From contig CM059440.1 in assembly GCA_030390025.1 (NCBI GenBank), forward strand, positions 69,998,001-70,062,000: a DNA stretch of 64,000 nucleotides, in the 5' to 3' direction. This DNA is from Squalus acanthias (taxonomy: Eukaryota). Below are positions 2,127-62,271 of the stretch, piece after piece (position 1 is the stretch's first letter; each line of letters begins with the position of its first letter). Both the position numbers and the translations under genes were made by a program. The notes beneath the pieces were generated by a model. The model made no database searches. It was not told the DNA's origin and worked only from the letters and a program-made list of their open reading frames with translations.

Positions 2127-3205
2127 CTTTGGTCAACAGGAGGAAGGAGAACAGGAGGCAAAAGAAGAAAAAAAAATCAAAGACTAACCTCTCCAAATAG
2201 AAAACAGCAAAAAATAATGACAGAAACATGTATTATCTTATATATATATATTGCTTTGTTGCAGAAGATTACTTCTTATATACATTCACTAATATGCATT
2301 TACCTTACTGAGTAAGCGATGTCAGGTTTGAATACAGTATTCTGGAAGCCTGCATGCTGTATTCCTAATTCTGCTCACATAACATTTTCCCTGTGGATGC
2401 CCCTTTGCTAATTTCTTTTTTCCACTAAATTATTTTTGTGAAGCTGGTGAGTAAACTGTGGAAAATAACTCGAAAGGGGCTGAGCTGATGAACAGTCTGT
2501 GGCCCATGTCGAAAGGTGCTAGGTTCAGATTAACAGCTCATCCATCATATGAGCTGCATGAGACAGGGAGAGGATAGCCATGCAACCGCTGAGAGTTCCA
2601 CCCCCAACAAGCCTGCTGCTCTCAAACAGATGTTGGGCACCTTTCCCTAGCTGTCGCAGACAGAAATTATTTGATAAGAAATTTACATATTTAAAAGCAG
2701 CACGAAGCATAATTAGTGAAGAGTTTAAATTCAAAGTATGAAGGATCGACTACAACAGACATTCTTCAGGTTCCGAGCCTCCTATCTGTTGTTAAAGGGG
2801 CATTGTCATTCTGGTTAAGTGAGAGGGCTGTAATTTTACTGGGCTTGTAAACAAGAGATCCGAATTGGTTTGATTTGTGATGCAATGCCAACGTACCCCT
2901 GACTGAACTAAAACAAAACGAAAATGATTAAAATTAAATTACAAAGCCTCACGAACTTTGCGTCACAGTGCTTTTGTGCGTCTTTACTGCGGCAGTGCAG
3001 ACTTTCCTGGCGGACAGTTCCCGCCTGACAAAATGACAGCCTGTGGAAACAGGATTTTCACAATGGACTGTTTTTGGCTATCTCAGGATCTAAGACCAAC
3101 TGAAAGCTCCTTGAAAAGGTCATTCCAACTACACCTCTACCAATGTTAGTTTAAATGTGAGAAGTCGCACAACACCAGGTTATAGTCCAACAGCTTTATT
3201 TGAAA

Positions 3206-3242
3206 TCACAAGCTTTCAGAGCGCTGCTCCTTCGTCAGGTGA
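3206..3242 (-). ncRNA. Minimal hammerhead ribozyme motif (inverted copy, one stem II change)
   Basis: Reverse complement of 3311-3347. Confidence 0.6.
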
Positions 3243-3310
3243 AGTGAAGAGATGCATATAGGCATATAGTCTCTGACTATATATGCTGTGCCTAATTGCA
3301 TCTCTTCACT

Positions 3311-3347
3311 TCACCTGACGAAGGAGCAGCGCTCCGAAAGCTTGTGA
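3311..3347 (+). ncRNA. Minimal type I hammerhead ribozyme motif
   Basis: TCAC-CTGACGA-A-GGAGC-AGC-GCTCC-GAA-AGCT-T-GTGA: CUGANGA and GAAA core, stem I TCAC/GTGA, stem II GGAGC/GCTCC, palindromic AGCT stem III. Confidence 0.8.
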
Positions 3348-4488
3348 TTTCAAATAAAACTGTTGGACTATAACCTGGTGTTGTGTGACTTCTCACATTT
3401 GTCCACCCCAATCCAACACCGGCATCTCCACATCAATGTTAGTTTAATTCTCGTGCACTGTCGGCATCGACAACTCTCACAATCCCATGTTCTGATGTCA
3501 TTATTTAATCAAAATGATCATAAGTAAAATAGAAACTAACAAGAAGATGTACGGGCATGGAATTCTTAACAACCAGAAAAGGTAATTTGGCCAAACCAGC
3601 TTACAGCTTTGATTGATATCAGTCCAACATACTCACCTTCTCAACATGTTACCCAATCCTCTTTCCCGTGCAGAAACACATTTAGCTGCCTCATGAACCT
3701 ACTTCATTATTCACTACAATGGCCTTCCCTAGTAACTTACTCCACAAGTCTATTGCTCTTCGGAGGATTTTGCAGTGTTTGAAGCTTCTGTCCAAAGCAT
3801 AGGGGAGCTTCATTAGCCTTTGCAAAAAGGGTGGGATTTGCAACATTATATTTTATGGCACGCGGATGTGCTTGACGCCAGTTCCCCAAATGGAAACCTG
3901 GTGAGAAAGGGTCTCAGGTTGGTCCTGCCGACAGGCATACCTTTCAAAGATCAACAGGCATACCTGTCAAACTTGTGTGCCTACAGGAGTTTTAAAGGCC
4001 CTTTTCATAATTTTGTTCCTATTATTTTCTGTTTGCACTCAGGCTTTGTGCCAGTTTTTATCTTGGCCCCCCAGCTCCCTTTCCTGGTACCACTGAGTTT
4101 TCCAATGGGGATCCTATGAGCTGACATGTCTCAGGGGAAGGGAAGAACCTGTGGAGGGTTTTGCCAGGCAGGTCAGTCTGCCTCAGAGGTGCTCCATACC
4201 CTTCCAGCAGCACCTGCACACTGTATCTAAGGACAGAGGTCACATTACTTTGCTTTAGAAGACATTATGCTGATGAGGTTCCTCTTCCCAAAGAAGAGTG
4301 TGCCAACAGCCTTCCAGTAGCATCACTAAGGGATGTAAATGCCTAACTAGCCAACATGCTGAAAGGTCCTTCATGATACCCAATCACAGCATATCATGCT
4401 TTACATGGTACTGCATGAATGAAGGCATACCAGGATGATCAGGAGCCAGCTTGGGCTGTTTGGTTGCACCTGCCAAGATAGAGTCATA

Positions 4489-5381
4489 GGGGTAAAAATT
4501 CAGTTGGTTGCGCCTCCCGTTAGCGCCTTAAGAGGGCGCTAATGGGGCGCAAAGCCGCTAACGCCCGGGCGCAGCGATGTTTGCGCCGCTCGGGAACTTA
4601 ACTAGAGATTGTGCGGCGGCGCTAAACTTTACCGCTGCGACCACCTGCGCGCGCAGATTGTGACGTCATTCCATGGTGCAACGCCCTTGTGGCGCCCCGG
4701 AGCGGAAATTGAGTGGCGCCCCCTGCCTTACCGCCTGGCGCATCCAACGACCAGAAGACTGGAACGCTATCAATCGCTGTGGGGCTGGGGGGGGCGCTAT
4801 TTAAAGGGGGCCTCTTCCTGTCTTTTATTGTTGGTGGCATTTTTGAACTACGCATTCTGAGAGAGAGAGGGAGAGACTTCTGGAGAGATTCAACGTTGTG
4901 TGAAGGAGTTTTGGGTACTGAGCAGCACTTTGCAGGTTCATTTTGATTTGCCATTCCTTGTGTCGATTTAGCAGAGACTATGGGAGCTGCACTCTGAGCT
5001 CTTTGCCTGGTACTCTCCATTGTTCTTTCCAGCACATTTGATGTGCAAGTCTCTCCAGGCCGAGATTCAAGGCTGCAATGAACAGGATGTGGATGGAAAG
5101 CAAGATTAAGCATCCCCTTTAAGAACTGGCCCGTGCCATTGTGTGTGTGTTCCATTGCTGACTGACATTACATGAGCTTCGTCAGCGCTCTGAGTTAGCG
5201 CCTCACTCCTTGGCCTTTGCGCCTTAAGACAGGTGTGCAGCACTTGATTTAGCGCTCCACTCACCTCCTGGGGCGGTAAAAGTGAAGTTTCCAGTCAGTG
5301 CCGATAATTAGCGCCAGGCGCTAATATTTGCGTCCAGACGATATTTGCGCCCCAAATGGGGCGCGACCTAATTTTTCCCCC
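4489..5381 (+). mobile_element. Non-autonomous Harbinger derivative (MITE)
   Basis: TIRs GGGGTAAAAATT / AATTTTTCCCCC; TSD ATA; first ~500 bp match the end of the 1-1707 element; inserted in a CR1 (CATAGAGT)n tail. Confidence 0.9.
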
Positions 5382-9491: not shown

Positions 9492-11039
9492 AGTGGCTTT
9501 TTAAAGATTAAAGATATTTAAAGAATTTCATTCATCCCTCCAGGTTATTGTTTCATTTTTTTTTATATATATAGATATATTGAGTTAGGAGTTAAGGCAA
9601 CACTTCCTCACCTAATCTGTTCCACCCCCCGCCCTCCTGCCATCCTATCTCCAGGCCAGCTACAGTGACAGACACAATAATGAATCTATCACATCTCACA
9701 CTACCTGAGAATGACTGCCAGGCTTCATGTGGCTTGAAGCACACATCCACAATTGAAAACAATTGGCCTATTGAGAGTTATAGCAGCATTGCTCCACTTT
9801 TCTATAAAAACAGTAATTTGTCAATTTAAAACATGTATTTATTGTAAATTTGGCAGTTTGTTAGCAGTAGAATCAGAACACCTGTAATTTTACCAAATGA
9901 AGGGATATCACTCCTTTAATAGAACCATTCCCTAAATATAAAGCAGCCTGATTTTATGACTCCTTCCTTCATTATCTTTAAGTCTGTTGCTATAAATGTA
10001 CTTTAAATATATATATAGTGATTCAATGTACTGACAGATTCGCACTGTAAAAAATATGGCAATGAGCTCACGTGTTGTCTTCACAATAGCAGCGATTCGC
10101 AAGCTAATGACGTCAGGGCACATAATCCAATGCTCATTGTTGACAGAAAGTCAAAATCTTGCAGACAACATGCCAAACCACCAGTGGCCGTTTTACACCC
10201 TCCAACACTTTTCTGCAGCTCAGAAACTTGCCCATTACATTCAAAAGATCCGATCAGATAATTGGATTTCTATGTAAATCGAAAGCATCCAATTAGAAGA
10301 TCAGATTTTCTTCCACATGCTGCAATGTTAAGGTATTGCAGGATATAGACTACAAAACTCTCAGCAGAAGCAGTAATGCAATTATAAAAGAATAATCAGG
10401 TTTATAAATTTAAATATCTTTATATTGAGAGCGTGGTTATACTTAATTAAGACATTTTCTCTTCATATTTTAACAAGATCGCAGGATTATTTTAACAGTT
10501 GACTGGTGTTAGGAGTGAGCTCCGGCACCCGAATAGGTAAGGCCTAATCCACATCCTACATGGCTACCCGTTACATTATTGTCATCTTAGCCAACCGACA
10601 CTTGGAGCTTGACATTTCCTGTAACTAGGTTGCTTGCCTCAGTTATACAGTGAGAATTCTACATACTCTCCTTAAAGTATCTGAAGGGCCGCAAATCAAA
10701 AGTCTCAGAGGACTAGAAATTCATTATAGCCAAGAAATGGCCAGTGTTTAGACTAAAAAAGATTAAGCTGCGCCACCCAAAAATCATCTAGGATTCACGC
10801 AAGATTCGTGCTCACTCCTCATTAAAATGATTGTAGTCATGATTCTAGTCTAAAAACTCGAGCTCTTTGGCGTTACACTGAAAAGCTGGACCAATATCGG
10901 GGGCAGTCTAATTGCAAGTCATGATTGCCACAGGTTTTTTCCACTACCTAAAGGGGAGGTTCATTGATGCTGCAGCACCTCATTGTAAGGCTTGCTGGGT
11001 CTGCGGCTGCCCCAACAGCAAAGCAAACAACAGTCAGAA

Positions 11040-12841
11040 GACATCCATAGCAACCACGGCAGACCGGCGACGGAGGCAGAGAGCCCGTAGGTTCTCCGAT
11101 GAAGCTCTTCAGGCATTGGTGTTCGCGGTGGAGAGGAGGCGGGCGGTCCTATACTCGCCAACTGGCAGGAGGCCCTCGCCACAAGTCTGTCGCACTATGT
11201 GGAGGGAGATAGCAGACCACATCGTGGGCAGCACTGTGGTCCCTAGGACCCACACCCAGTGCAGGAAGAAGTTTCTCACACGGGTGGTCAGGGTGAGTGA
11301 AGGCTTCAGCAAATGCCACATACCACCATCTGTACCACAAGCTTCAGAATGCACCACACCCCTAGCACTCACCCACCAACAATCTCTACCTATCAACACT
11401 CACACCCACATCTCACGCCTTGTACATAATGACAGCTATTCAACTATGGCAGGCACATCACACAAACACATTGCACCACACTCACTGACACACTTCCCTT
11501 GCTCTTGCGGGCTAAGGTTGCTCACAATTGTTCGGAGCAGGAGCAGACAGGCAGGGGCCAGGTAGACATTGAAGAGCTGAGCCAGCTAGAGAGTCGAGTG
11601 CTGGAGATCATTGGGCACCAGGTGGTTGGCACTGTGGCCACCGGTGACGTTGACCCCCTTGGGAACAACAAGGGTAGGTTCATTCCTAATCCTTCTTCTC
11701 ACATCCCACTTCCCCCTCAGCCCACAACCTTTTCTCACTTTCAAGCTACTCATGCATTTCTGGCTTCCCCGCCCCCCTCCCCTCACCATAACCCGACTCT
11801 CGTGCCTTTCTCCTTTCAGATAATCAGCAAGCACCCGAGCAGCCTGTCCCCAAAGTCACCGCTGAGAGCGAGGGGGGAAAAGAGGAGGAGGAAGAAGACA
11901 CCACATCACTGCATCTCTCACTCGCAGACACCAGCTCAGATACTGGCACTGTGCGTTATTTAGAGGCTAGTGTAGTAGCGGGATCTGCACAGAGTGAGGC
12001 ACCGGGGATGAGTGGGCTGCAGCAAGGCCAGGGGGAAAGACTAGCTTGGGAACCAGCCCTCCGGAGGGCGAGTTCGCGTGCATGTTCTGCTGCACAGGAC
12101 TCAGATGAGGACCTCGATGGGGAGGCCTTCAGAAGAAGGGTGATGGGCATGCACACAGAAATGATGAGTGCAATAGCAAGGCTGCCAGAGAGCCTCTCAG
12201 CAATGTCAAAGAGCGTGGAGGAGTCCACCTCCAACATTGCACAGGGCTCTATGCAGAGCATGGAGCCCAGGAATTCCAGTCTGGAAATGACGGTACACTC
12301 CCAGAGAGACCGTGGTGACCCAGATGTGATGGCACGCATGATGGGCAACGTCACAGCTTCCATTGCAGCACAGGCGGAAGCAACGCACCATCTTAGTGCT
12401 GCAGTGGAAGCTCAGACTGCTCTCATGCAGTCTCGGCTTGAAGACTCCCAAGCTCTGACTGCTGCCATCGTGGCTGGGTCTACCACCGTCGACCAGGGCT
12501 TTCACAGTGTCGTAGCAGGCCAGCAATCTGTGCTGCAACAGATTGTTAGGGATGCTGAGGCCCTGCCCTGGGAGAGTGGCAGTGGATCAGTGGAGCAGGA
12601 ACCTGCTGTCCTCTTTCAGGATGACAGCATTCCTGCTCCCACCACTGCCTGTCAGCCAGCCAGCCCAGACTGCTGCCGCACATGCCGAGGTGGTGCAGTC
12701 TACAGCCGGGCCGTCTAGGTCTACAGCTGGTCAACATCTGAAGTCTCCCACACGGAAACACAGCAGCCTTCCACCAGCCGTGCTGCAGCCACTGAGGGAG
12801 CACTGCGTAGGAGCACTAGATCAGGAAAAGACAGACACTAA
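11040..12841 (+). pseudogene. Harbinger Myb/SANT-like DNA-binding protein gene, three exons, degraded
   Basis: RARRFSDEALQALV...WREIA...RTHTQCRKKF; donor GTGAGT at 11293; exon 2 at 11511-11673 (acceptor mutated); exon 3 from 11820; ends LRRSTRSGKDRH* (TAA 12839-12841). Confidence 0.75.
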
Positions 12842-14644: not shown

Positions 14645-15792
14645 TCATGGGAATTGGAGTCGGATGAGCCAGTCATGGACAGCCCGTCCGGAAGGCCAAT
14701 TGTCTGCCTGCCTCCTCCCTCCCTCCTCGTCCTCCTCCTCCTCCTCGTCCTCCTCTCCCTCGTCCTCCTCCTGAGGTGGTCCCGCAATCCCTGCTGGCAA
14801 GGGCTGCGCCCTCATGGTGGCCAAGTTGTGGAGCATGCAGCAGACCACCACAAAATGGGTCACCCACTCAGCCGAGTACTGGAGGGCTCCTCCCGAGCGG
14901 TCAAGGCAGCGGAACTGTTGCTTCAGTAGGCAGATGGTCTGATTGATAATGTTCCAGGTGGCAGCATGGCTTTCATTATATGAGTGTTGGGCACGAGTGT
15001 TGGGGTTGCGAAGGGGAGTCATGAGCCAGGTGGAGAGCGGATAGCTCTTGTCTCCGAGCAGCCACCCTCGAGCCTGACGTGATGGCTGGAAGAGTGCTGG
15101 CACACCGGTCTAGCACAGGATGACGGCATCGTGGTTGCTGCCAGGATAGCGGGCATTGACATTGAGGATTCGCTGTGCATGGTGCACACCAATTGCACGT
15201 TAAGTGAGTGGTTACGGAAGATCTCAGTATTGTTATGCAGTGCCCGCAAAACCACGTGGGTGATGCCAGTGGCGCCCTGCGCCATGGGGAAGCCTGCTAT
15301 CCTGGCAAAGCCACATGCATGCTCGTCCTGCTTCTCTCTGATCGGGAAGCCAATGTTGTCCCTTCTCCTGGTGTAGAGAGCCTCTGTGATCTCCCGGATG
15401 CAGCAATGGACGGCGAACTGCGAGATGTTAGCTATGTCTCCTGTTGCAGACTGGAAGGATCCGTTGGTGAAAAAATTGAGGGCAATGGTGACCTTGACTG
15501 CCACTGGGAGAGCCGTGGTCGACCTGGTCTGAGGCTGGAGGTCTGGTTGCAGGAGGTGGCAGAGTTCTGCGGCCACCTCCTTGGTGAAGCAGAGTCTCCT
15601 AATACACTGCTCCTGGCTTAAATGAAGATAGGAGAAGTGCTGTTGGCAGACCCTAGGTGGGTAAGGCCTCCTGTTGAGAGCCCTGATGGCCCTCCTCCTC
15701 CCCCTGCGTACATGTTCCCGTCTTTCTCGCTGCCTCTGTTCCCTCCGCCATAGATCCTGGAGGGCGAGGTCGACTGCCAGTACAGCCCCCAT
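14645..15792 (-). pseudogene. Harbinger transposase pseudogene
   Basis: ORFs 15019..15804 and 14645..15103; frameshifts; first catalytic motif and the Glu motif altered (GATGITH, INQTI). Confidence 0.88.
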
Positions 15793-18955: not shown

Positions 18956-19216
18956 AGAGGCAGTACAGCGAAAAGCTATGAATCTGATCCTTAGGGCTCG
19001 ATTTTAATAGCCCTGAGGAGGCGGGTTTGGAGGCAGGTGGGCAGTGAAAATCAGAAAAAAATATCTTCAGACTGCCAACCCGCCTCCATCCCGCCCCCAC
19101 CCGATTTTCGTGAGTGTCGGGTCAGCCGCTCCCAAACTGACCCGACTGGAACCGGTGGGACAGGTAGTTAAAGCAATTAAGAGCTTGTTAACTGCCTTGC
19201 TAATCCTATCGGCGCA

Positions 19217-19916
19217 TCGGTACATCGGCGAGACCATGCAGACACTGCGACAACGTATGAACGGATACCGCGCAACAATCGCCAGGCAGGAGTGTTCCCT
19301 CCCAGTCGGGGAACACTTCAGCAGTCAAGGACATTCAGCCTCCGATCTTCGAGTAAGCGTTCTCCAAGGCGGCCTTCGAGACACACAACAACGCAAAATC
19401 GTCGAGCAGAAACTGATATCCAAGTTCCACACCCATGAGGACGGTCTCAACCGGGATCTTGGGTTCATGTCACGCTACATGTAACCCCACCTGACGTAGA
19501 GTCATCCAGACTCGAGTCGTCGTTGGCTTGTTCTCTCTACACAGATGCGGCCGGACCTGCTGTGATTTCCAGCAAAAAAAGTTTTTTGTTTTCCATACAG
19601 ACCCCAGCATCTGCCACCTTGTCTTTGATGTAATGTTTGCCTGACTGACCTGTTTGGACACCATCCACACCTTTGATTGCCGAGATTATCTGTCTGCCGA
19701 GGTGTGATAAAGGGCAGTTGGAAAGATTAACTGCAATCATCTGGCTGTGTTCTCTGACTATATATGCTGTGCCTATATGTATCTCTTCACTTCACCTGAC
19801 GAAGGAGCAGCGCTCCGAAAGCTTGTGATTTCAAATAAAACTGTTGGACTATAACCTGGTGTTGTGCGACTTCTCACATTTGTCCACCCCAGTCCAACAC
19901 CGGCATCTTCACATCA
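19217..19916 (+). mobile_element. Penelope-like family A, 5'-truncated (GIY-YIG C-terminus plus 3' UTR)
   Basis: YIGETMQTLRQRMNGYR...PVGEHFS...RKIVEQKLISKFHTHEDGLNRD; ends with the same tail as the palindromic minis. Confidence 0.9.
19792..19828 (+). ncRNA. Minimal hammerhead ribozyme motif
   Basis: Identical to 3311-3347. Confidence 0.8.
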
Positions 19917-22900
19917 TATTTTTATAGTGGTTTCCCATTTTGGTGCTTCTGGCTCCTGTTTCCCGTCTTGTCAGAAACACGCCAGCTGCAAGGAGACGAG
20001 GTTCTCACGGACATGATTTGTAGTCATTGTAAAGCGCTCCTGTAACATGGCTGACATTCAAATGCAACAACTTTGTTGTTGGAGGTTTGGAATAAGATTT
20101 TGCAAATCTACTGACCTCGTGACTGTTCAATCTGACACCCATCTGCAGTGTTACCTGATTGGAATAATTTCAGGTCACATTGAGTGCGATTGCAAGCTTT
20201 TTGCCTCAACTGAAATCTATAGCAACGGGATGGGAACCATTTACATCCTCTCATCCTGGTCGTCAGATTCGGAGGAAGAGCAGCTGCGGCAGCACCACAA
20301 CCAGCCACAACAGCAGCACCAGCACCAAGAGCGCCAACCTCCTCCTCACCCACCTGATGCTGCACTGGACACAGGGCATTAACCCTTGACAAAATTGCTG
20401 GCCGGGAGGCCAGAAAAGGCATCACCATGGCCAGATTTTCTTCACTTGATGCTGTAAACCCTGGCTGCCACTTGATGTGCCAGGTTGACACCATCCCACA
20501 CCAGCACCAGGAAGCATCCCTTTAATGTCCAAGCCATTCCATGCACACACATCACTATAGTGCGGGGGGGTGGGGGGATAATGGAGGAGTTATGACTGAA
20601 CAATCACTGGAACTCAGTAAGACACCTCTCAATGTGCGCTCAGATCTGTCCAATAAGGGGCACTTTTGGAAAAAGATATTACATTGCATGACAACACATT
20701 ACCAGAAACTTCACATGGACATTGGCTAAATCTCTCAAGTGCCTACTCTTGTGTGTTGTTAGTTGGTATGCTTGCAGTAGGATTAGGGTGATTGTGAGAG
20801 GTGGCTAGTGAGATGAGGAAGTGATAAAGTAGATAGAGAGGGTTGGTTGGAGGTTCAAGGTAAGTTGGTGTCCTGGTGAGGTCTCTTCCACCCTTGGAAG
20901 GGAAGAGAACCTCCCTGCATGCTGTGACTCCCTCTATAAGCATATGGAGGGCGTCACTGGAGAGCCTGGGGCCACGTGTTCACCTTTGTTCAGTGATTGT
21001 CAGTGTTCGCAGCATCTCAATGCTGTCAAACACTGACAGATCAACTGTCAAAATTAAATTGTGCATGGTCCCTTTAAGGAAACCGGCAAATGACCTCATC
21101 AGACCCGCTTCCTGTTAATTGGCCGGGAAGCCCGCAGGGCGGGTTTAACAAGACCAATCAAGGGAAAATTACGTCTGCTGAGCGGAGGCAGCTGGGGGCG
21201 GGACCGGAACCCATAAACCAGCGGACCCGCCCCATCCTGCCTCCAGAATTAAATTCGCGGCCTTAGTGTCAAGAGGTCTGAGCTATCTAGTGCTTGAGAA
21301 TCTTAGGCTTTTCACTCTGTAATGGAGGCATCTGAGAGATGATCTTCTAGAGGTATATAGAAAACGACTTTAAATTTAACTCTTGGTGTAGAACAAGGGG
21401 GCTCAGGTTCATACTAGTAAAAGATCATTTTAGCACTGATATCAGAAAGTTTTTCCTCATCCAGAGTGGTCAACCCTTGGGATGGACTTCCAAATAAAAC
21501 TTCCAAACAATCAGATGTTGCAGACAGGGGACTATAGGGTCTCGATGGATGGATGAACTAAAGGGCCAAATGGTCATCTTTATCCATAAGTATCCCGTGA
21601 TCTTGCGAAAATCAAAAAGTTGAATAAACTGGTAGCCTTGCTTGCCACTGACAGTGCTGTCCCTATGGTGAAGGTTGGATGTGGGCGTCTTGCCGCAGAT
21701 GGAATAGGTCTTCAAGAGGCTTCGTGCTGATGCAGAACCTGCAGAATCAACCCCACATGATCATTGTCAGGTAGGTGTGCCAAAGCCTTCAGAGATGGGT
21801 GGTAGCGTCACGGTAGGTATGGCCAATCTGGCTCTGATGCCTGCTGATCGCCATGGCATGTCTTTTTTTTTAACCTTCTGCCACTTAAATCGCAAAATAC
21901 TCTGTGTCAGATGTCTTCACAGCAAACAACAAGTTTAAGAGAGCAAAGTCTTGCCAAAGGGTACTCCATTTGGTGTAGTTTCCAGCTAGATGCTGTGCGC
22001 ATGCTGTGGTGGTATCAACGCTGACATTATGGGACACGCTTTACGGATTCTGCCGCCTTTAAGGGTCTCCCATTCTGCTGTGATATCAGTACCAATAAGG
22101 GTGCTCCCACGATTCCCCTGGTCCCAGCAGAGAGTACTGGTTGGAGACAGGGTACAACATTGTGGATGACATTCTACGGCCTGCAATCCCTGTGAAAGTG
22201 GTTCATGTTGGTCGCGTGGGATCGGAGAATCACATGGAAAGATTTTTGCTGTTTCTCAAGCATTCCGACCCAGCCTGATCTGGAAACACAGGAAAAATAC
22301 ATTAAATATGAGCTGGGAAAAGAAATAAAATAAAATTGCTTGCTCCTAGATTTTACCCTTTAATGTCTGTTTATAATGGACAAAGGTATCGATAGGCAAC
22401 ACCTCCTCCCAAACACTGGAAATGTAAATGAGCCTGCTAAATGTCTTCATTATCATGCTGTGTGTATCCATGATTAGGCTCCCACGCAGAATGAGCGGGA
22501 ATGGATATTGTCAACGTATAGCCTGTAAGCAAATCACCATGGGGCACGTTTGCAGTGAGGAATAGACCGGGGGCACTTTGTCCACAGTTGCCCGAATCCC
22601 GCCAGTGATACCAATACTGCATCACTAGGAATATAACTGTGTCAGCAACCATCCTGTGAAACAGCCTGACCATGCAATTATGATTGGTAAGCCAGCCGTT
22701 ATTAAACAAAAGTTTTAAAAATTGATGATGAAAACATTTTTATTCATCATTTTTTAATTACGGTTGTTCTAAAAAAAAAAATATGATGGGAATGAATTTT
22801 TTGGACAGTTACTTGAGGATCGGGCTATTGCAGGATTTTATCCTAAGCAGCTCCTTTAACCATTAAAATGAGTAGTGACCACTTTTGATGGCAGCTGCTC

Positions 22901-23125: not shown

Positions 23126-23338
23126 TAATTATAATCCAGCACCAATGGACACTAATTAGGATTCTTAGCATAGCTGGTGTGTCTTATTGATGCTGCCAGG
23201 GTTGGGGATAATGTACATTTTGGGACAGCATAGAAGGAGCTTTAATCTGCACACACCCTGTTCTATGGCTGACTTGAAAGTACACAAAAATGAGAAGTCG
23301 CACAACACCAGGTTATAGTCCAACAGATTTATTTAAAA

Positions 23339-23376
23339 TTACAAGCTTTCGGAGCTGTTGCCCCTTCATCAGGTAA
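23339..23376 (-). ncRNA. Minimal hammerhead ribozyme motif
   Basis: Minus strand TTAC-CTGATGA-A-GGGGC-AACA-GCTCC-GAAAGCTT-GTAA. Confidence 0.75.
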
Positions 23377-23678
23377 AGGTACAATGAGGGAATCTACAAT
23401 ATTACACAGTATATAAACACCGAAAGCAATTTGTCTGCAGAGATACAATCTTTCAGGGAGGCATTACATCAAAGACACACCAGAGTACAGCCAAGGCAAT
23501 GAGATGGGTCACAGGGGGTCCAACGTGTCAAATCCGAAGGACCCCCTGTGACCCATCTCATTGTCTTGGCTGTGCTCTGGTGTGTCTTTGATGTAATGCC
23601 TCCCTGAAAGATTGTATCTCTGCAGACAAATTGCTTTCTGTGTTTATATACTGTGTAATAGATTCCCTCATTGTACCT

Positions 23679-23716
23679 TTACCTGACGAAGGGGCAACAG
23701 CTCCGAAAGCTTGTAA
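23679..23716 (+). ncRNA. Minimal hammerhead ribozyme motif (covariant stem I)
   Basis: TTAC-CTGACGA-A-GGGGC-AACA-GCTCC-GAAAGCTT-GTAA. Confidence 0.8.
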
Positions 23717-24321
23717 TTTTAAATAAATCTGTTGGACTATAACCTGGTGTTGTGCGACTTCTCATTTTTGTCCACCCCAGTCCAACACCGGCATCTCCGC
23801 ATCTTGAAAGTACACAGTCATGATACCTTGTGCACACAGTGGAACCATGCCTATCCCCCGAGATCCCTCAACTGGGTGAGCAAAAAATGAACCCCAAAAT
23901 TGTTTTGTATAATTAAAAAAAACAATGAAGCCTGTATTAACTGATCATGTTTAGGGCCTAGTTGTTCATGAAGCAGTAGGTGAGCACACTTACACACTGC
24001 ATTAAAGAATGGTGAGATGTCAATGTTATGGTTTGGCTGCTTCCCAACACTTTTGTCTTTGGTCACAATAATAAGACAGTTTCTATATTCAGACCAAGTC
24101 TCTTGTGCCCTTAAACATGCCTTTTATGGGTTAGTTTGCCCAGGTTTAACAATCAACATCCAACTCCTTTATATAGTTCACTGGGAATCACATGGGATGC
24201 CCACCTTATTCTCCAGTCTCCCCTAAAAGGTGGCATCTACCATGCCATCAGACCAATGTGTACAAGCTAAAACTATTAGTTAGATTTATCTATGGGTTAA
24301 TTAATATGTAGAAGCCAAAGA

Positions 24322-27497: not shown

Positions 27498-30400
27498 ATG
27501 GGGATGTTCGCTGATGACTGCACAGTGTTCAGCACCATTCGCAACTCCTCAGATAATGAAGCAGTCCATGCCCGCATGCAACAAGACCTGGAATTCCTGG
27601 AGTGTATACGGGATGGTTTCCTGGACCAATATGTCGAGGAACCAACTAGAGATCAGGCCATCTTAGACTGGGTATTATGTAATGAGAAAGGATTAATTAG
27701 CAATCTTGTTGTGCGAGGCCCCTTGGGTCGGAGCGATCATAATATGATCGAATTCTTCATTAAAATGGAGAGTGAAGTAGTTGACTCCGAGACGAGGGTC
27801 CTGAATTTAAATAAAGGAAACTACGATGGTATGAGGCGCGAGTTGGGTAGGATTGATTGGGGAATGTCACTCAAAGGGTTGACGGTGGATAAGCAATGGC
27901 AAACATTCAAAGATCGCATGAATGAACTACAGAATTTGTTCATCCCAGTTTGGCATAAAAATAAAACAAAGAAGGTGACTCAACCGTGGCTAACAAAGGA
28001 AATTAGGGATAGCATATGATCCAAGGAGAGGACATATAAATTGGCCAGAAAAAGCAGAAAACCTGAGGATTGGGAGCAGTATAGGATTCAGCAACGAAGG
28101 ACAAAGAGATTAATTAAGAGGGGGGAAATAGAGTATGAGAGTAAGCTTGCAGGGAACATAAAAACTGACTGTAAAAGCTTCTATAGATATGTGAAGAGAA
28201 AAAGATTGGTGAAGTCAAGCGTAGGTCCCTTACAGTCAGAATCAGGGGAATTTAAAATGGGGAACAAAGAAATAGCAGACCAATTAAATACATACTTTGG
28301 TTCTGTCTTCACAAAGGAGGACACAAATAACCTCCCAGAGATGTCGGGGAACATAGGGTCTAATGAGAGGGAGGAACTGAAAGAAATCAGTATTTGTAGG
28401 GAAATAGTGTTAGGGAAATTGACGGGATTGAAGGCCGATAAATCCCCAGGGCCTGATAATCTACATCCTAGGGTACTTAAGGAAGTGGCCCTAGAAATAG
28501 TAGATGCATTGCTGGTCATCTTCCAAAATTCTACAGACTCTGGAACAGTACCCATGGATTGGAGGGTAGCTAATGTTACCCCACTATTCAAAAAAGGTGG
28601 TAGAGAGAAAACGGGGAATTATAGACCTGTAAGCCTGACATCGGTAGTGGGGAAAATGCTAGAGTCCATTATAAAAGATGTAATAGCAGAGCACTTGGAA
28701 AACAGTGACAGGATCGGACAAAGTCAACATGGATTTACAAAAGGTAAATCATGCTTGACTAATCTACTGGAATTTTTTGAGGATGTAACTGGTAAAATAG
28801 ATAAGGGAGAACCAGTGGATGTGGTGTATTTGGACTTTCAGAAGGCTTTCGATAAGGTCCCGCATAAGAGATTAGCATGCAAAGTTAAGGCACATGGGAT
28901 TGGGGGCAAGGTATTGACTTGGATAGAGAACTGGTTGGCAGACAGAAAGCAAAGAGTTGGAATAAACGGGTCTTTTTCTGAGTGGCAGGCAGTGACTAGT
29001 GGGGTACCGCAGGGATCGGTCCTGGGACCCCAGCTATTCACAATATATATTAATGATCTAGACGAGGGTATTGGATGTAATATCTCCAAGTTTGCAGACG
29101 ACACAAAGCTGGGTGGGAGTGTGTGCCGTGAGGAGGATGCCGAGAAACTCCAGTATGATTTGGATAGGTTGGGTGATTGGGCAGAAGCATGGCAGATGCA
29201 ATATAATGTGGATAAATGCGAGGTTATCCATGTTGGTGTCAAAAACAGGAAGGCAGATTATTATCTGAATGGAGATTGGGAGAAGGGGAAGTGCAACGAG
29301 ACCTGGGTGTCCTTGTGCACCAGTCACTGAAGGTAAGCATGCAGGTGCAGCAGGCGGTTAAGAAGGCAAATGGTATGTTGGCCTTCGTAGCGAAAGGGTT
29401 CAAGTACAGGAACAAGGATGTCTTGCTGCAGTTGTACAGGGCCTTGGTGAGACCACATCTTGAGTATTGTGTGCAGTTTTGGTCGCCTTATCTGGGAAAG
29501 GATGTTCTTGCCATGGAGGGAGTGCAGCGAAAATTCACCAGGCTGATACCTGGGATGGCAGGAATGACGTATGAGGAGAGATTGGGTCGATTGGGCTTAT
29601 ACTCGCTGGAGTTTAGAAGACTGAGAGGGGATCTCATTGAAACTTATAAAATTCTAACAGGACTAGACAGACTAGATGCAGGAAGGATGTTCCCGATGGC
29701 CGAGGAGTCCAGAACCAGGAGTCACAGTCTAAGGATAAGGGGTAAGCCATTTATGACTCAGATGAGGAGGAATTTCTTCACCCAGAGAGTGGTGAACCTG
29801 TGGAATTCTCTACCACAGAAGGCAGTAGAGGCCAATTCATTAAATATATTCAAGAAGGAGTTAGATATATTTCTTAAAGCTAAAGGGATCAAGGGATATG
29901 GGGAGAAGGCAGGGACAGGGTACTGAATTTGGATGATCAGCCATGATCTCATTGAATGGCAGAGCAGGCTCGAGGGGCTGAATGGCCTACTCCTGCTCCT
30001 ATCTTCTATGTTTCTATGTTTCTATGGACGACATTCAGGCTTGGGCTGATAAGTGGCAGGCAACATTTGCGCCACAGAAGTGCCAGGCAATGACTATCTC
30101 CAACAAGCGAGAGTCTAACCACCTCCCCTTGACATTCAATGGCATTACCATCGCTGAATCCCCCACTATCAACATCCTGGGGGTCACCATTAACCGGAAA
30201 CTTAACTGGACCAGCCACATAAATACTGTGGCAACAAGAGCAGATCAGATGCTAGGTATTCTGCGGCGACTGTCTCCCCTCCTGACTCCCCAAAGCCTTT
30301 CCACCATCTACAAGGCACAAGTAAGGAGTGTGATGGAATACTCTCCACTTGCCTGGATGAGTGCAGCTCCAACAACACTCAAGAAGCTCAACACCATCCA

Positions 30401-44823: not shown

Positions 44824-46320
44824 GACACTGTTCCAATGAAGCTCAATGCAAGCTCGAGGAACACCACCTCATCTTTCTACTAGATACTTTGCAGCCTTCC
44901 CCCAGCCTTAATATTGAGTTTAAGAATGTTAGATCTTAACCATGCTCCCATTTTCTCTCGCACAGCAGGTGCTGGTAAGGGGGATGGCTGCACTAGAGCC
45001 ACTGAGAGTGGAGGAGATGTGGACTGGTGCTTGGGGTGGGGATCCCATATCGATACACGGCTGGTGGGGTGGTCCGTACCCCTGTGGTCTACCCACCTTT
45101 CTCCACCACATTCCCGGGCCACGAGAGTCTTCTCCTCTTTGTGACATTTTCCATGCTTCCCTTCCCCTCTGCTATTCTGCTGTAACCATTTATACACGCT
45201 CTGGACCCCTCTATTATCACCCTTTGCCTTGCACCATCACCACTTCTGCCATTTAATCACTCCTGCTCTCCACCCTATCACAGATCTTCCTTTTGTTCTT
45301 TTCCAGCACCCCCCCCCCCCCCCCCCCCCGCCACCGCCCGCCATTCTCCCTCCACCCCCCAACCTTAATCTGGCTCTGTATCTACTTACAAGATGTTCAT
45401 CTCTAACCATCTTGCAGTTCTGATGAGAGGTCATCGACCTGAAACATTGGCTCCGATAATAACTGTGAGGTGAGAAGGGAGCAGGGGTGGAGGTGGGGGT
45501 GGGGGGGGGGGGGGGGAGATTTAGTGGGCCAGGAAACCCGGAAGTACGGGTTTCCCGGAGGTCCTGCCGAATTTAACGGCAGGACCGGATTTAGGTTTTT
45601 AGAATCGGTTTCCCAGCCAGATTGAGAGGTAGGACAGCTGGGGAGCGGAGCACAGGTGAGTTGGACATGGGGGGGGGGGGGGTGCTGGGAGAGGAATTGG
45701 ACATTGGATGTCGGAAGGGGAAGTGGGACATTGGGGGTTGGGAGGTGAGTCGTACATCAGAGGTTGTACATCGCTGGTCCGATCGCACGGTGGGGTCGGC
45801 CGATCGAGGGGGTCGAATCGCGGGGTGGTTCCCAGGGTAACTTGGTGGACCGGGGGGAAGCACTCCTGCTCCTCCTGGTCCACAAGCAGTGCTGGAAAGG
45901 CACTTAGCTGTTCCAGCCATTCTCGCCTCCTTTTAGCTGCCGGGTTTCCCGAGGCCCGGGAAACCCGGCCCCAGGAGTTAAATATGAAATAGAGATTAAA
46001 TTTGAGGCAAGCAGCTTCATTAAAATATTTTAAGAATGGACCTGTCTCCGGAGAGCAGGTTAGTCACCCGCCCTCCAACCCGCCTCCGTTAAAATTGGAA
46101 GTGGGCGTGTTGGAGACGGGTTGGGTTTGGGTTTGTCAATTATTTTCTTTTTAACCCCCCTCCACTTCCCCCCTGCAGCCCTTCCTTAGAGGTTAAAAGT
46201 CCCCCCATTGACTCTGTTTCTCTCTCTCTCCACAGATGCTGCCTGACCTGCTGAGTGTTTCCAGCAATTTCTATTTTAATTTCAGATTTCCAGCATCCGC
46301 AGCATTTTGCTTTTTGTTTT
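44824..46320 (+). mobile_element. Penelope-like family B 3' fragment with hammerhead, interrupted by a MITE
   Basis: HCSNEAQCKLEEHHLIFLLDTLQPS...LNIEF; motif AGTT-CTGATGA-G-AGGTC-ATC-GACCT-GAAACATT at 45416-45448, resuming GACTCTG at 46210. Confidence 0.8.
45449..46206. mobile_element. Harbinger-type MITE
   Basis: Imperfect TIRs GGCTCCGATAATAAC / GTTAAAAGTCCCCCC; TSD ATT; removal restores PLE sequence. Confidence 0.75.
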
Positions 46321-46391
46321 AGGCTGCGACATGGCAGAAACTTGGATCCACAGTTCCTTTCATCTATCAGTGATTCCAGTGTAAAAGATGC

Positions 46392-47492
46392 GGGGATGCC
46401 GCTGTTGGACTGGGGTGGACAAAAATGAGAAGTCGCACAACACCAGGTTATAGTCCAAGGGGGAGAAATTCAGTATCGCCCCATTTGGGCCGCAATTATC
46501 GGCCGGGCTCAAAGATTAGCGCCTGGCGCTAATTATTGCCACCGACTGCAAACTTGACTTTTATCGCCCCCTGGAGGTGATTGGAGCGCTAAATCAGGCA
46601 CTTCACACCTGTCTTAAGGCGCAAAGGCCGAGGAGCGAGGCGCTACCTCAGAGCGCTGGCAAAGCTCATGTGATGTCAGTCAGCAATGGAACACACACAC
46701 AATGGCACCGGCCAGTTCTTAAAGGGGATGGTTGATCTTGCTTTCCATCCACATCCTGCTCATTGCAGCCTTGAATCTCTGCCTGGAGAGACCTGCACAT
46801 CAAATCTGCTGGAAAGAACAATGGAGAGTACCAGGGAAAGAGCTTAGAGTGCAGCCCCCACAGTCTCTTCTAAATCGATACAAGGAATGGCAAATCAAAA
46901 TGAACCTGCAAAGTGCTGCTCAGTACCCAAAACTCCTTCACACAGCGTTGAATCTCTCCAGAAGTCTCTCTCTCTCTCGCTCTCAGAATGCGTGGTTCAA
47001 AAATGGCACCAACAATAAAAGGCAGGAAGCGGTTGCCTTTAAATAGCACTCCCCCAGTCCCTTCATGACTGCAATTCGCTCCCCTCAACCTGTCGTTGCT
47101 AGCATCAGGCGGTAAGGCAGGGGGCGCCACTCAATATCTGCTCCGGGGCGATACCGGGGCATTGCGCACTCGACTGACGTCACGATCTGCCGGCGCAGGA
47201 GATCGTGGCGGTAGTGTTTAGCGCCGCCGCAAAATGTCTAGTTAATTTCGCGAGCGGCGCAAACATCGCCGTGCCTGGGCGCTAGATGCTTTGCGCCCCA
47301 TTAGCGCCCTCTTAAGGCGCTAATGGGAGGCGCAACCAACTGAATTTTTCCCCCCAACAGTTTTATTTGAAATTACGAGCTTTCGGAGCGCTGCTGCTTC
47401 GTCAGGTTCCTGACGAAGGAGCAGCGCTCCGAAAGCTCGTAATTTCAAATAAAACTGTTGGACTATAACCTGGTGTTGTGCGACTTCTCATT
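46392..47492 (-). mobile_element. Penelope-like family A palindromic mini-element interrupted by a Harbinger MITE
   Basis: TSD AGTGTAAAAGATGC at 46378-46391 and 47493-47506; hammerheads back-to-back at 47373-47442. Confidence 0.88.
46459..47354 (-). mobile_element. Harbinger MITE, same family as 4489-5381
   Basis: TIRs GGGGGAGAAATTCAG / CTGAATTTTTCCCCC; TSD CAA. Confidence 0.92.
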
Positions 47493-49504
47493 AGTGTAAA
47501 AGATGCCAGTCAAGGTAAACATGGCATTAAAGTAATGTCTTGTCTTGTTTCCAGAACAGTTTAAGGACACTTTACTGCTCATCAGCATGGAGCGTATACT
47601 TGTATTGCAGAAACAAGTGGATGCAAGGAACGTTTTGCCTCCCAAAGGAGTGACCCTATTAAGATCCTTCATTTATATGATAGCCTCCAATCTATCTCAC
47701 ACCACACTCCTGTATCTCTAGTCTATCCATTCTGTAAAAAGACTATATTCATACAAGTCGCTAAGCATTATTCTTATTGAAAGGTGAGTCATTTTAGTGG
47801 CCTTTGCCCAGACTGGTCCATTGAGCAAAAGCTGGCAGATGCAGCAATTAAAACTGATGATACTGGATGCAAACATGGCTGGGGTAAATGTTTAATTTTC
47901 CCACAGGAATTAATTGACCTTTCACTTGATGTCACATCCTGCTAAACTCATACTTAACTACAAAGCTTTTAGCAGTAATTGTATCCACAATACAGTCTAA
48001 TGGCTGAGTATGTGCAGAACCATCCTTTAAAGAGCAGTTAAACTTTCTACAAATCTCAACCCCGCCGCTCCTAGCCCCTTCAGTTAATTATCTTAGCCTG
48101 TAGGTTCTGGCACTTGATGGCCAGCCAACAGTAAGAGGAGGAAATCAGTAATTGGCAGTTTCTAAGCGGACTCCCCCATCCCCCACCACTATTCCTGGGT
48201 GGACAGGCTGCTGCATTTGGAGATGGTTGTAATGATATTTCTTTTTGTCCAGCCAGAAGATATGAGGTTACAGAATTTTGCCGCTAGCAAATGAGAGTGA
48301 TTTCGACCTCCTTCTGTGAGCATCCTGCCCCAGGACCAGGGCAGGCCTGCTTCTGCTAGCCGTGCTGGCCCCTTCACTGTGGTACATAATTGGTTACCTC
48401 GAGCACCTGACTTCCTTCCTTCAATCCATATTTTTTTTTACGTATCACTTTCCATTCTCGTGTTCCACCAACAATCCTTATTGTTGCCATAAGTACTAAC
48501 TTAATTGTAATTCATTGTAACTTGTATTTTTTTTTAAACCAAAACACCTTTTGAAAATAGGAACTAGCTACCAATTGAAATTGAATCTGAAAGAAATAGA
48601 CGGTTGAACATTGCAGGCATCTTAGTAAAGGTAAAGATAGGAAGATATCCAGTGACGAAAATCTATGTAATCCTTCAGGTTTTTCCTACATCTCCAGCTG
48701 TAGAGTGTTGGGTGTACAGCAGTTAACAGTGACAAGCAACAACTACAGAGAAAAAACCTGCAGATATACTAAGGTATCTTACTGAAATGATGACCGGATG
48801 ATACTGAAAATTCAGCAAGGTTCCTTGGCTCTGATTTTTGTCAGTGATACAATTGAATGTTGCCTCTTCTGTTGTTTGGTAAATTTTAACTAGTGATATA
48901 TTGTAGACAAATCTATTTGTTTTCTCTGGTTTTCCTTTCCCTTTTTCTGCCAATTTCTCTCCTTCACTCTCTTCTGAAGCTATTGCCACCTTGCTGGATT
49001 ACAGTTCTATGGGAGCTGGGGGCTCTTGTGTGTGAGCCTAGACATTGAACATCAACAAGCTATTTGAGGAAGCCTGATGCTGTCCTCACCCTATGTAATT
49101 CCAGCAGGGATCACTGGATAGCAATCAGGAGCAGGAACTTTGAACAGTTTCAGCTCCCTAACGCAGGGACCCTGAGGCTAATCACCTACCCACCCCCCGC
49201 CCATCCCCACCCAACTGAGATCAGCTACTGTAGAGCCTATGGTGCTGCTACTCACTGCCTTAATATGCTGAGCTATTGGCCAAGCCCAAGTCCATGGTTT
49301 CTAAAATTAAATGTATTTCTTTAGTTAATAGTAAATACAGATGCACCTTTAGAAAGACAGCAGCTATCCTGTTCTTCACCACCTACTGCAGTTTTAGAAG
49401 TCTGTTTCTTCATAAACTACCTCCCCATCACCTTCCCTTGTGTCGCAAACTACAGGGTGACAGGACACACATCTGAGCCCCAGTTTCTCATGTTAAATCA
49501 TCAA

Positions 49505-58852: not shown

Positions 58853-60314
58853 AATATAAGAGAAACTAGCAGCATGGCGAGAAAATTGGTTGGTAGACAG
58901 GAAGCCAAGTGTTGGGGTAAATGGATGTTGTTTGGACTGGAGAAGAGTTGGAGGTGTTGTACCCTAGTTGTCACTGCTGGTTCCACTTTTGTTCTCGGTA
59001 CCATAATTCAAACTTGGGTCTCTGGAACAAAATCTCAAATCTAATGACAACACAAAAGTGGGACATTTGATATGCAGTGAGAAGAACTGTAAAAGTCATC
59101 TGGAAAACATAGCTTAGCGGAATGGGCAGACATGTGGCAGATGCAATTTAGTGTGGATAAGTGCGAGGTAATGCATTTTGGGGAGAAAAAAAACAAGGAA
59201 TGGAAGTATATACTCAATGCAAAGGTGCTGAAGGATATGGATCGAACAAAGATGCCCAAGGGTTCAAGCACATAATTCCCTGAGAGTGTGAGGGCCAATA
59301 GAATTTTGAGTTTTATAAATAGGGAATAGAGTGCAGGGTCAGAGGTTTTACCAGTGAGCTGCTTTGGACTTAATTCTAATTTAAAATGATCTGAACAATG
59401 GGACAAGGGCAATCTAACAAAAGAATCATTCAAGATTGTTTAATCTATTGCGTTATTTAAGTAGGTCATTAATAAAGCACTGCAGTACATTTTCAAAGCA
59501 ATTGTTCGTTATTAAATCTGTTGTACTATCAAGTTTGTTACCAACAATGCAATATCAGAATGATACCGGGGCTAAAGGGGTTAAATTATGAGGACAGGTT
59601 GCATCGGCTAGGATTTGTATTCCTTTGAATATAGAGGATTAGGGGATGATACAATTTTGAGGTGTTTAAGATGATTAAAGGATTTGATAGGGAAGATAGA
59701 GGCCCGTATTTTCCGATCAGAGGCTTCCTGCGTGCTGAGGCCTCCGATCTGGAAAAAATCTACGGACTTACCTGAGGGCTCCCGAGGTGCGGACACTTCC
59801 CCTCCTGGGCCTCTCCAAACTCAAAATGCGCAGGGCCCACGTATCCCAGGGGCGCAGGCGGTTCGCAAGCATCCCTGGGATCACGTGGGCCATGGGGAGC
59901 CAATCAAAGAAGGGAATCTCCCTTCATATACTTGACAGATAGACCTGTCAAATATATGAATGGAGATCACCCCAAAAACACTGTAAAACATTAAATAATT
60001 TTTTTTTAATCACATTTTTTAAATGAATTGAAATTACAATAAATTAAATATTTTAAACAAAAAGTTTTTTACGGGGCTAAAAATAAACTTACCTTTTTTA
60101 AATATTTTTAAATTATAAATGAGTGGAAAAAATAATTTTTTTTTTTTACTTTTTTCAACTCTTATGCTGGTAAAAGCAGGCCTTACGCCTGCTTTTACCA
60201 GGCGTAAGATTTCTAAGGGTTTTCTGCGGGCGGAGGTTCTCCAGAAAGCGGAACTATCCGCCCGCAGAGGCCCTTCTCCAGGGCAGGCGTCCGATCTGTC
60301 AAGAGCATTCTTGA

Positions 60315-61009
60315 TGCGGCGATGCCGGTGTTGGACTGGGGTGGACAAAAATGAGAAGTCGCACAACACCAGGTTATAGTCCAACAGTTTTATTTAAAAT
60401 TACGAGCTTTCGGAGCTCTGCTTCACAAGGCTGATACCTGGGATGGCAGGAATGACATATGAGGAGAGATTGGGTTGATTGGGCTTATACTCGCTGGAGT
60501 ATAGAAGAATGAGAGGGGATCTCATCGAAACATATAAAATGCTGACAGGTCTGGACAAACTAGATGCAGAAAGAATGTTCCTGATGGTCGGAGTGTCCAG
60601 AACCAGGGGTCATAATCTAAGGATAACGGGTAAGCCATTTAGGACAGAAATGAGGAAGAATTTCTTCACCCAGAGAGTGGTGAACCTGTGGAATTCTCTA
60701 CCACAGAAGGTAGTTGAGGCCGAGTCACTAAATATATTCAAGAATGAGTTAGATATATTTCTTAAAGCTAAAGGTATCAAGGGATATGGGGAGAAGGCAG
60801 GTACAGGGTACTGAGTTTGGATGATCAGCCATGATCTCATCGAATGGTGGAGCAGGCTCGAGGGGCCGAATGGCCTACTCCTGCTCCTATCTTCTATGTT
60901 TCTATGTTTCTTCAGGTATAGGTACCTGAAATAGGAGCAGAGCTCCAAAAGCTCGTAATTTTAAATAAAACTGTTGGACTATAACCTGGTGTTGTGCGAC
61001 TTCTCATTT
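60315..61009 (-). mobile_element. Penelope-like family A palindromic mini-element interrupted by CR1
   Basis: TSD AAGAGCATTCTTGA at 60301-60314 and 61010-61023; degenerate hammerheads. Confidence 0.85.
60423..60910 (+). mobile_element. Young CR1 3' fragment
   Basis: Closely matches 29535-30023. Confidence 0.92.
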
Positions 61010-62271
61010 AAGAGCATTCTTGACAGATCGGAAATGCCAGTTTTCAGCGCATGTGCTTGGCATGCCTGAAACCGGCATTTCCGATGTCCCTTCAAATGTG
61101 TACACAGCACGTATACACCCGTAGGGATCGTAATATACGGCCCAGAGAGAAAATATTTCCTCTGGTAGGGAGTCCAGAACAAGGGGACATTACCTTAAAA
61201 TTAGAACTAGGCCAATAAGGGTTATATCAGGAAGCACTTCTTCACACAAAGTGTAGTGGAAATCTGGAACTCTCTCCCCCAAAAGTTGTTGAGGCTAGGC
61301 CAATTGAAAATTTCAAGGGTTACAGAACCAAGGCGGGTAGATGGAATTAAGATACAGATCAGCCATAATCTAATTGAATGGCAGAACCGGTTCGAGGGGC
61401 TGAATGGCCTACTCCTGTTCCGATGTTCCTAATATTAATGTATACATGGATCGTGAGAATGGCAAGTATTTTAACCACCGTTAATATAGAAAAAAATCAT
61501 CCTGAAATAATGAATGTCCTGTAACTGAAAATAACCGCATAATTGACATCATAAATTTTTGGAATTAAATCCTGTAAAAAAAAACTAAGACATCATTCCC
61601 CTACTTCACAATATATACTGCTGTTCTCTCAGAAGGAGGATTACACCTTGCCTTGCCTTTCCCTCCATTTGCTTATTCTCCCAGGGACACTTCAGCTTCC
61701 TTTTTGACAGATGGATCAGGGTGAACAAAGACGACTGGCTACCACTGTTTGCCTATTTTCAGTTGTTCAGTCAAGTTTTACATCTGTGCAGATGGTCAGC
61801 ACCTGCCTGGGGAAGAGGAATCATTTCTCATTAGGCCTCGTGCCCTCCTTCATTCTTTCCCTGCAGAGATCGCGACCTTGCCAGCTGCGCTGCCTCTGGG
61901 CACGGGGCTTCCCTGTAGACATATGACAAGGCCATACCAGATGGTAGGAGGATGAAGTTCACAGATCAAAGCAGTTTTAGATCCAGCCATAGGTTTAGTT
62001 GGGCACTTGACATTTCAATTGGACAGCATAGAAAGAATTAAGATGTTCAACAATTTTCCTATATATATTGTAATATAAAACCATGCATCTGCATGTACTT
62101 CATGCCCATCATACTTTATGCTTCGCACGTAACATAGGCTGATTATATATAAATTTCTTGCAATCTAAAATTCAGCAATAAAATGTCATAGCAATAAATC
62201 AGTAAGAGAAGTAACAAAAATCTACCAATCAAATGAAAACAGAAACTGAACCAAATTACTCAATGTTCTTA

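Follow-up and report, generated by a model that had tools for sequence, protein, structure and literature searches.

The 64,000-nucleotide window analysed here, one continuous stretch of contig CM059440.1 of Squalus acanthias, holds four palindromic insertions, designated E1–E4 by position. With a probability of about 0.8, these are independent 5′-truncated insertion products of a protein-coding Penelope-like element (PLE) of sharks; the mirror arm of each would have been made at integration, and the hammerhead ribozyme motifs in the arms would be passengers locked in a hairpin. Target-site duplications, arms, a tail, differing turns, private variants common to both arms, a coding relative and secondary insertions can all be read directly in the sequence. 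A first-pass annotation of the same DNA had left two options, a self-propagating, retrozyme-like family and repeated abortive insertion; the latter is favoured by the different turns, the coding parent and the lack of head-to-tail hammerhead tandems.

Boundaries, arms and tails

Each insertion is bounded by an exact 14-bp direct repeat (4/4), for which the chance expectation is about 5e-6 per element in a ±10-nt search, and the duplicated targets are 64–79% AT. The first-pass annotation had given every element its own target-site duplication (TSD) of 13–14 bp; the length is a uniform 14 bp, and the earlier range arose because the duplications overlap the tail end by 1–5 nt. Between the duplications two inverted arms meet at a turn, and a tail of 32–35 nt extends from one side only, so that a tail-bearing arm (T) and a tail-less arm (N) can be told apart in all four. 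The mirror-image insertions of the annotation are thus present in 4/4; its order of inverted arm, turn, direct arm and tail holds for E1 and E2, which are sense on the plus strand, and not for E3 and E4, where the tail lies at the left and the sense strand is minus. The arms differ by 5 substitutions in 117 nt and a 7-nt gap in E1, by 4 substitutions in 229 nt in E2, by 1 in 84 (two pieces) in E3 and by 1 in 74 in E4. PLE sequence amounts to 202–516 bp per element, with E3 at ~202 bp and E4 at ~209 bp once later insertions are removed. The features are as follows.

3141..3154: E1 left target-site duplication (14 bp)
3155..3271, minus: E1 N arm, inverted; hammerhead C3 at 3238, with a G10.1-U11.1 wobble
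within 3155..3271, minus: TATA-like word of the E1 N arm, with a 7-nt deletion
3270..3276: E1 turn, an overlap of 2 nt (3270–3271) and a loop of 3 nt
3278..3310, plus: E1 predicted core promoter of the pLTR; TATA-like word 3278–3284, Inr-like TCACT 3306–3310, spacing 21 nt
3311..3347, plus: E1 minimal type I hammerhead; stem I of 4 bp, CUGACGA and an extra A, stem II of 5 bp, GAA-AGCU-U
3399..3433, plus: E1 tail, ~35 nt, on one side only
3434..3447: E1 right target-site duplication
23273..23816, plus: E2 with its duplications (23273–23286 and 23803–23816); N arm 23287–23521, loop 23522–23538, T arm 23539–23767, tail 23768–23802; hammerhead C3 at 23372 (minus) and 23683 (plus), both arms with TATA-like and Inr-like words
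46378..47506, minus: E3 with its duplications (46378–46391 and 47493–47506); tail 46392–46423, T arm 46424–46458 and 47355–47407, turn 47407–47408, N arm 47409–47492; full stem I missing from the hammerheads of both arms
46459..47354: secondary insertion in E3, 896 bp, with 16-bp terminal inverted repeats and a 3-bp CAA duplication
60301..61023, minus: E4 with its duplications (60301–60314 and 61010–61023); tail 60315–60348, T arm 60349–60422 and 60911–60918, loop 60919–60922, N arm 60923–61009; intact hammerhead core on neither strand
60423..60910, plus: secondary insertion in E4, ~490 bp, the 3′ end of a LINE that codes for reverse transcriptase (RT)
19221..19484, plus: C-terminal 87 codons of a PLE endonuclease ORF in the fifth copy, E5; 91% identity to residues 557–643 of shark protein P0001
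19620..19917, plus: E5 pLTR; TATA-like word 19759–19765, hammerhead C3 at 19796, tail

A coding relative and a minimal hammerhead

When the E1 arm is searched against the window, a fifth copy appears, E5 (~19215–19917), which is absent from the first-pass annotation and runs from an ORF remnant through a tail end near 19917. It is not palindromic: an inverted arm and a target duplication were looked for, at its 5′ junction as well, and neither was found. Over 166 bp, the E1 T arm and E5 share 96% identity. The best named matches of the ORF remnant are shark proteins (38 matches among 50 candidates). P0001 has an RT domain (RVT_1 in Pfam); inspection by eye adds a GIY-YIG-like motif and a CX4CxxC linker, the latter in a region of P0001 that lies outside the part present in the window; in Pfam searches a GIY-YIG endonuclease gave no match. 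Because the ORF that E5 terminates shares 91% identity with a shark RT protein, the E1–E4 family likely has a protein-coding parent, a Penelope-like retrotransposon of sharks, and the PLE origin proposed at first pass holds. The family combines the traits of endonuclease-bearing PLEs: an RT with a C-terminal GIY-YIG-type endonuclease (its motif read by eye), a pLTR with a minimal hammerhead, and an inverted, 5′-truncated, tailed copy within a TSD.

The hammerhead motif of the family combines stem I (4 bp), CUGANGA with one additional A, stem II (5 bp), GAA and a palindromic AGCU; the cut-site residue is U or C. Six sites in the window fit a descriptor of the minimal hammerhead (mean 0.005 and maximum 1 in 200 dinucleotide shuffles), and five of them fall in the family: both E1 arms, both E2 arms and E5. 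These matches agree with the minimal type I assignment and palindromic AGCU of the first-pass annotation, and its predicted cut after 3343 fits the numbering (C3 = 3315). Its statement that each arm carries the core, degenerate in the last copy, is too broad: both core boxes occur in 6/8 arms, stem I reaches at least 4 bp in only 4/8, and the complete minimal hammerhead is found in the four arms of E1 and E2 and in E5, but not in those of E3 and E4. The E3 turn falls inside stem I; one E4 core is split by the LINE and the other carries G8A, A9U and G12A. The search with hammerhead models that the annotation had suggested came back empty, Rfam giving 0 matches at the gathering score and no hammerhead model at E ≤ 10; this null lowers the claim to the canonical Rfam family, not the claim to the descriptor-defined minimal type. 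Rfam matches to E1 by e-value were rejected: they are miRNA and small-RNA models answering the long hairpin, all below the gathering score. Covariation is weak: stem I shows one two-sided change between subfamilies, C-G to U-A, and across the 7 distinct related rows 23 of 500 shuffles score as high.

The sixth descriptor site, at 45420 (45416–45455, plus), belongs to a different family, as does a hammerhead-like core at ~22999 (plus). A local inverted arm was sought at both places and found at neither; within the window, the palindromic form appears specific to the E1–E5 family.

In E1, E2 and E5 a TATA-like word stands 17–22 nt before an Inr-like word, directly upstream of the ribozyme, and the pair is predicted from its sequence to be the pLTR promoter; the A of the Inr-like word lies at 3308 in E1 and at 19789 in E5. 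The TATA-like word is missing from E3 and E4.

Several observations concern E5 and its relatives. Within the E5 3′ region, the segment 19494–19613 belongs to another repeat family and has a decayed hammerhead-like start; since it matches 46223–46267 and contigs of two of the four runs aligned to 19200–19930, out of 24 listed, carry other sequence before 19619, a nested insertion is its probable origin. The two are X1 (15,718 contigs) and X13 (3,480 contigs; its RNA origin is only guessed); X21 gave 19 reads and X22 none. At 19910–19917 the tail end reads CATCAT, and in X1 and X13 the listed loose ends behind 19917 have G as their first letter, though at low agreement, so that the end of the element may fall at an ATG. 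Many annotated shark host proteins (e.g., XRCC5, septin 5a and USP8 isoforms) carry pieces of the endonuclease end, which probably come from gene models that include the repeat. At 31126–32173 (minus) lies a frameshifted remnant of a distant PLE ORF (21% to P0001, E 1e-7) with CX4CxxC and YIG-like motifs, and its downstream part resembles 44907–45301.

Turns, folding and the origin of the mirror arm

Measured from C3, the turns of E1–E4 fall at about −45, −162, −2 and −10 nt, respectively, and differ in both position and sequence in 4/4, with no common junction. The first-pass annotation had held that turns unique to each copy genome-wide would refute a self-propagating family and indicate separate truncation events; the turns are unique among the four copies of the window. 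Over a 31-nt common segment the arms differ by 2, 0, 0 and 1 nt within the elements and by 1–6 nt between elements. Because the turns differ and the arms of each element share private variants, the sequences point to independent insertion events, although later gene conversion could also make variants common to both arms.

The N arm ends within E5 positions 19878–19881 in 4/4, and among the matches listed for X1, loose ends with unrelated flanks pile up at 19917 (at least 68 contigs), 19876 (at least 41) and 19886 (at least 21). At the turn side the two arms end no more than 18 nt apart in 4/4 (chance ≤0.002 in a simple uniform model of independent truncation); compared with E5, the E1 T arm matches from offset −45 and the N arm from −40. 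The T arm is longer in the 3/3 judgeable cases, with E3 and E4 judged against the related upstream sequence of E1, E2 and E5 and not against their own parent; the parent sequence at the E2 turn lies outside the window. E3 and E4 turn at a near-identical place, both within 10 nt of the Inr-like position of E1, E2 and E5; their likeness in size and turn fits a turn hot spot and also a propagating size class.

A route to such units can be proposed from these junctions. The endonuclease of the element would nick both target strands 14 nt apart, and each nick would prime cDNA at one of two internal start sites ~36 nt apart, which would leave one tailed and one tail-less end. The tail-side cDNA may then stop early (at 110–280 nt) and fold back on a 2–5-nt match; a second cDNA would pair with the fold-back copy, and repair would fix the head-to-head palindrome. 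Alternatively, each of the cDNAs could run off the RNA at a common 5′ end. The two routes are rated almost evenly, with fold-back just ahead: it is favoured because the T arm is longer in all judgeable cases and short stems close the turns, and twin run-off because the E3 centre is only 2 nt and the E3 and E4 turns lie near the predicted start. The 2-nt E3 spacer is awkward for fold-back priming. Copies would decay after insertion, and later insertions are found in 2/4 elements while the complete ribozyme is absent from 4/8 arms.

A more specific form of the run-off route, in which both nicks prime at the start sites nearest the RNA 5′ end and both cDNAs run off at the pLTR transcription start, is put forward only tentatively. 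If run-off is true, a stereotyped ~205-bp palindrome would result, with its centre marking the transcription start; shark genomes would preserve, on a very large scale, natural traces of how Penelope integration completes its second strand, a step so far unsolved; and the longer copies (E1 and E2) would be portable pairs of outward-facing TATA-Inr promoters that release hammerhead-led transcripts into the flanks.

The architecture bears directly on the fate of the ribozymes. The predicted fold of E1 (−203 kcal/mol, z = −31) leaves the 35-nt tail unpaired, in keeping with the long hairpin that the annotation had foreseen in read-through RNA. There is one sense hammerhead per strand, and its own complement lies upstream of it; because the antisense arm precedes the sense arm on either strand, the complement already exists when the hammerhead is transcribed. 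Forcing the hammerhead fold costs 53–69 kcal/mol in the 6 arms with a core, versus 1.6 in E5, and the predicted probability of stem II in read-through RNA is below 1e-16, versus 0.13 in the non-palindromic E5. In any read-through RNA the hairpin is thus predicted to keep the motifs locked, and the notion of two back-to-back ribozymes working as one unit finds no support in these calculations. Given the cost of forcing the fold, no dimer is expected in cis, and an AGCU dimer would require two separate RNA molecules. When two isolated hammerheads are co-folded, the domain-swapped dimer is not the minimum-energy form and the AGCU duplex contributes only −2.5 kcal/mol, a result uninformative on activity. 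Neither proteins nor transcripts with a start inside the turn enter into equilibrium folding; in an RNA starting there, from 3308, stems I and II fold at 0.85–0.99, and such a transcript would escape the hairpin lock.

Among the other explanations, the likeliest, though itself improbable, is a self-propagating non-autonomous family, much like a retrozyme: the whole palindrome, or at least a ~205-bp class of it, would be transcribed, and the PLE protein, acting in trans, would insert it anew as a unit. The density of copies (four in 64 kb) and the likeness of E3 and E4 in size and turn position would follow from it, and one X1 contig forms a head-to-tail tandem from the tail end to the hammerhead start through 23 nt; however, all four junctions differ, and E3 and E4 themselves differ at diagnostic arm sites and possess neither the TATA-like word nor a complete ribozyme. 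The units are moreover head-to-head, whereas retrozymes are defined as head-to-tail tandems, and the RT start sites would presumably be buried in fully paired RNA. A test for same-strand head-to-tail units, as in non-LTR retrozymes, gave 0/5 copies in the window. Very improbable is an origin after insertion, whether another PLE copy inserted head-to-head into the first or DNA replication switched templates: the DNA that a PLE protein can nick in vitro includes its own ORF-pLTR junction, according to the text of Frangieh et al. (2024, PMC11167929), and conversion between arms could give the common variants, but a single 14-bp duplication surrounds each whole unit, none is seen at the turns, and the tail-less end is at the same place in 4/4.

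A role for the host is given a slightly smaller chance still. Selection might keep the units because, with cleavage sites on both strands or as a source of dsRNA, they regulate host transcripts or silence the parent element, an idea to which the very stable hairpin, the occurrence of the family in the run guessed to be RNA, and the match of Penelope inverted repeats to siRNAs in transformed Drosophila, as given in the text of PMC3681739, lend some appeal. Against it, the arms have drifted and two copies are disrupted, the long ORFs scanned match transposon-type domains in Pfam (short exons were outside this search), and siRNA could be an unselected by-product. That the units are miniature inverted-repeat DNA transposons of the MITE or foldback type, moved by a transposase, is hardly credible: short size, lack of coding capacity, inverted repeats and target duplication would suit such elements, but the one-sided tail means that the repeat misses one terminus, the same sequence ends an RT-associated ORF, the centre position varies, and the coding parent largely refutes the idea. 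Independent insertion of a truncated PLE remains the preferred reading.

The aligned runs yielded further observations. Of the 7 joints listed, 2 are opposite-strand, in one contig each. The tandem X1 contig joins 19917 back to 19789 via 23 letters, a head-to-tail arrangement of ~150 nt with a hammerhead that resembles a retrozyme. Copy number from the summed depth, which rises towards the hammerhead-tail region, was dropped: depth does not give a copy number and divergence of upstream subfamilies confounds it. An apparent signal of A-to-I editing (A>G and T>C at 29/55 listed places in X13 versus 16/52 in X1, Fisher p = 0.03) was likewise rejected, the samples being different, X13 only guessed to be RNA and the reference copy having its own decay.

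Described relatives and later insertions

Inverted pLTRs with a 30–40-bp tail are standard in PLE insertions according to the texts of Arkhipova et al. (2013, PMC3846280) and Craig et al. (2021, PMC8557442). The shark copies resemble the endonuclease-bearing PLEs of these accounts in the head-to-head inverted 5′-truncated copy, the one-sided tail, the TSD around the unit, the junction palindrome (ascribed there to self-priming) and a TATA word ~20 bp before TCACT in the pLTR. The rotifer pLTR has a TATA-like/Inr-like arrangement as in E1 (PMC3846280). By contrast, the duplications are a uniform 14 bp here and 8–10 bp in the rotifer examples, and unlike the insertions described there, the shark copies keep little but the pLTR end and have near-symmetric arms.

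The shark motif matches the minimal type I hammerheads described from metazoan PLEs (Cervera and de la Pena, 2014, PMC4209133), a paper whose text considered here does not name sharks. In Schistosoma it describes dual opposite-strand motifs ~100–700 bp apart, with no activity as monomers and low activity as dimers; helix II is 5 bp in the shark versus 7–8 bp in Schistosoma. Retrozymes, as described in the texts of Cervera and de la Pena (2020, PMC7229834) and Li et al. (2026, bioRxiv 10.64898/2026.07.22.740005), are head-to-tail tandems whose same-strand ribozymes release circular RNA. The shark elements share with the animal non-LTR type a non-coding nature, PLE derivation, a type I hammerhead and a length of a few hundred bases; unlike retrozymes, they are head-to-head with one ribozyme per strand.

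A biochemical parallel is the Poseidon element of Anolis, PAc, in which a PLE protein cleaves and extends both strands, two internal start sites bracket the tail, and hammerhead cleavage is not needed in vitro (Frangieh et al., 2024, PMC11167929). The shark family likewise has two 3′-end classes bracketing the tail, a hammerhead upstream and AT-rich targets. It differs from PAc in the CX4CxxC linker of its shark relative, a linker placed by Craig et al. in the Neptune and Nematis clades. Symmetric mini-palindromes are not treated in the text of PMC11167929 considered here, which leaves the second-strand steps unvalidated.

Publications already cover inverted pLTRs with tails, pairs of hammerheads on opposite strands and siRNA derived from repeats of this sort: for the most part the pattern is a described one, met in a host that has been little studied, and its value lies in the data. 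A literature search that covered subscription journals thinly and main texts rather than supplements did not turn up any publication on the shark palindromes. The density and young age of the copies permit base-by-base reading of their junctions, and junction counts could separate fold-back from twin run-off and test the Anolis two-start-site model in vivo. Opposite-strand hammerhead pairs also inflate ribozyme counts, because they are predicted to be hairpin-locked in read-through RNA. By analogy with Drosophila Penelope, as described in the text of PMC3681739, the repeats could feed siRNA or editing pathways. DNA patterns of the family had 0 matches in metagenome and viral contigs; a protein scan of metagenomes returned one weak locus, L001 (44% over 33 residues).

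Two of the palindromes were themselves targets of later transposition. The 896-bp insertion in E3, which we take to be PIF/Harbinger-like, has further copies at 4489–5381 and 1183–1707. The LINE piece in E4, presumably CR1-like, splits the T-arm hammerhead and is 91% identical to 29537–30007, which overlaps an ORF at 29216–29926; the claim that none of the elements codes for protein therefore needs a qualification for E4, which holds this foreign coding remnant. Within 60880–60945, the mutated core of the E4 N arm matches the reverse complement of the adjoining LINE 3′ end over 10 nt, which could be due to chance or to conversion within the hairpin. DDE_Tnp_4 transposase and Myb/SANT domains occur at 41–1018, 10912–11562 and 14648–15109; to our mind they fit Harbinger-type transposons, and these could have moved the element inserted in E3.
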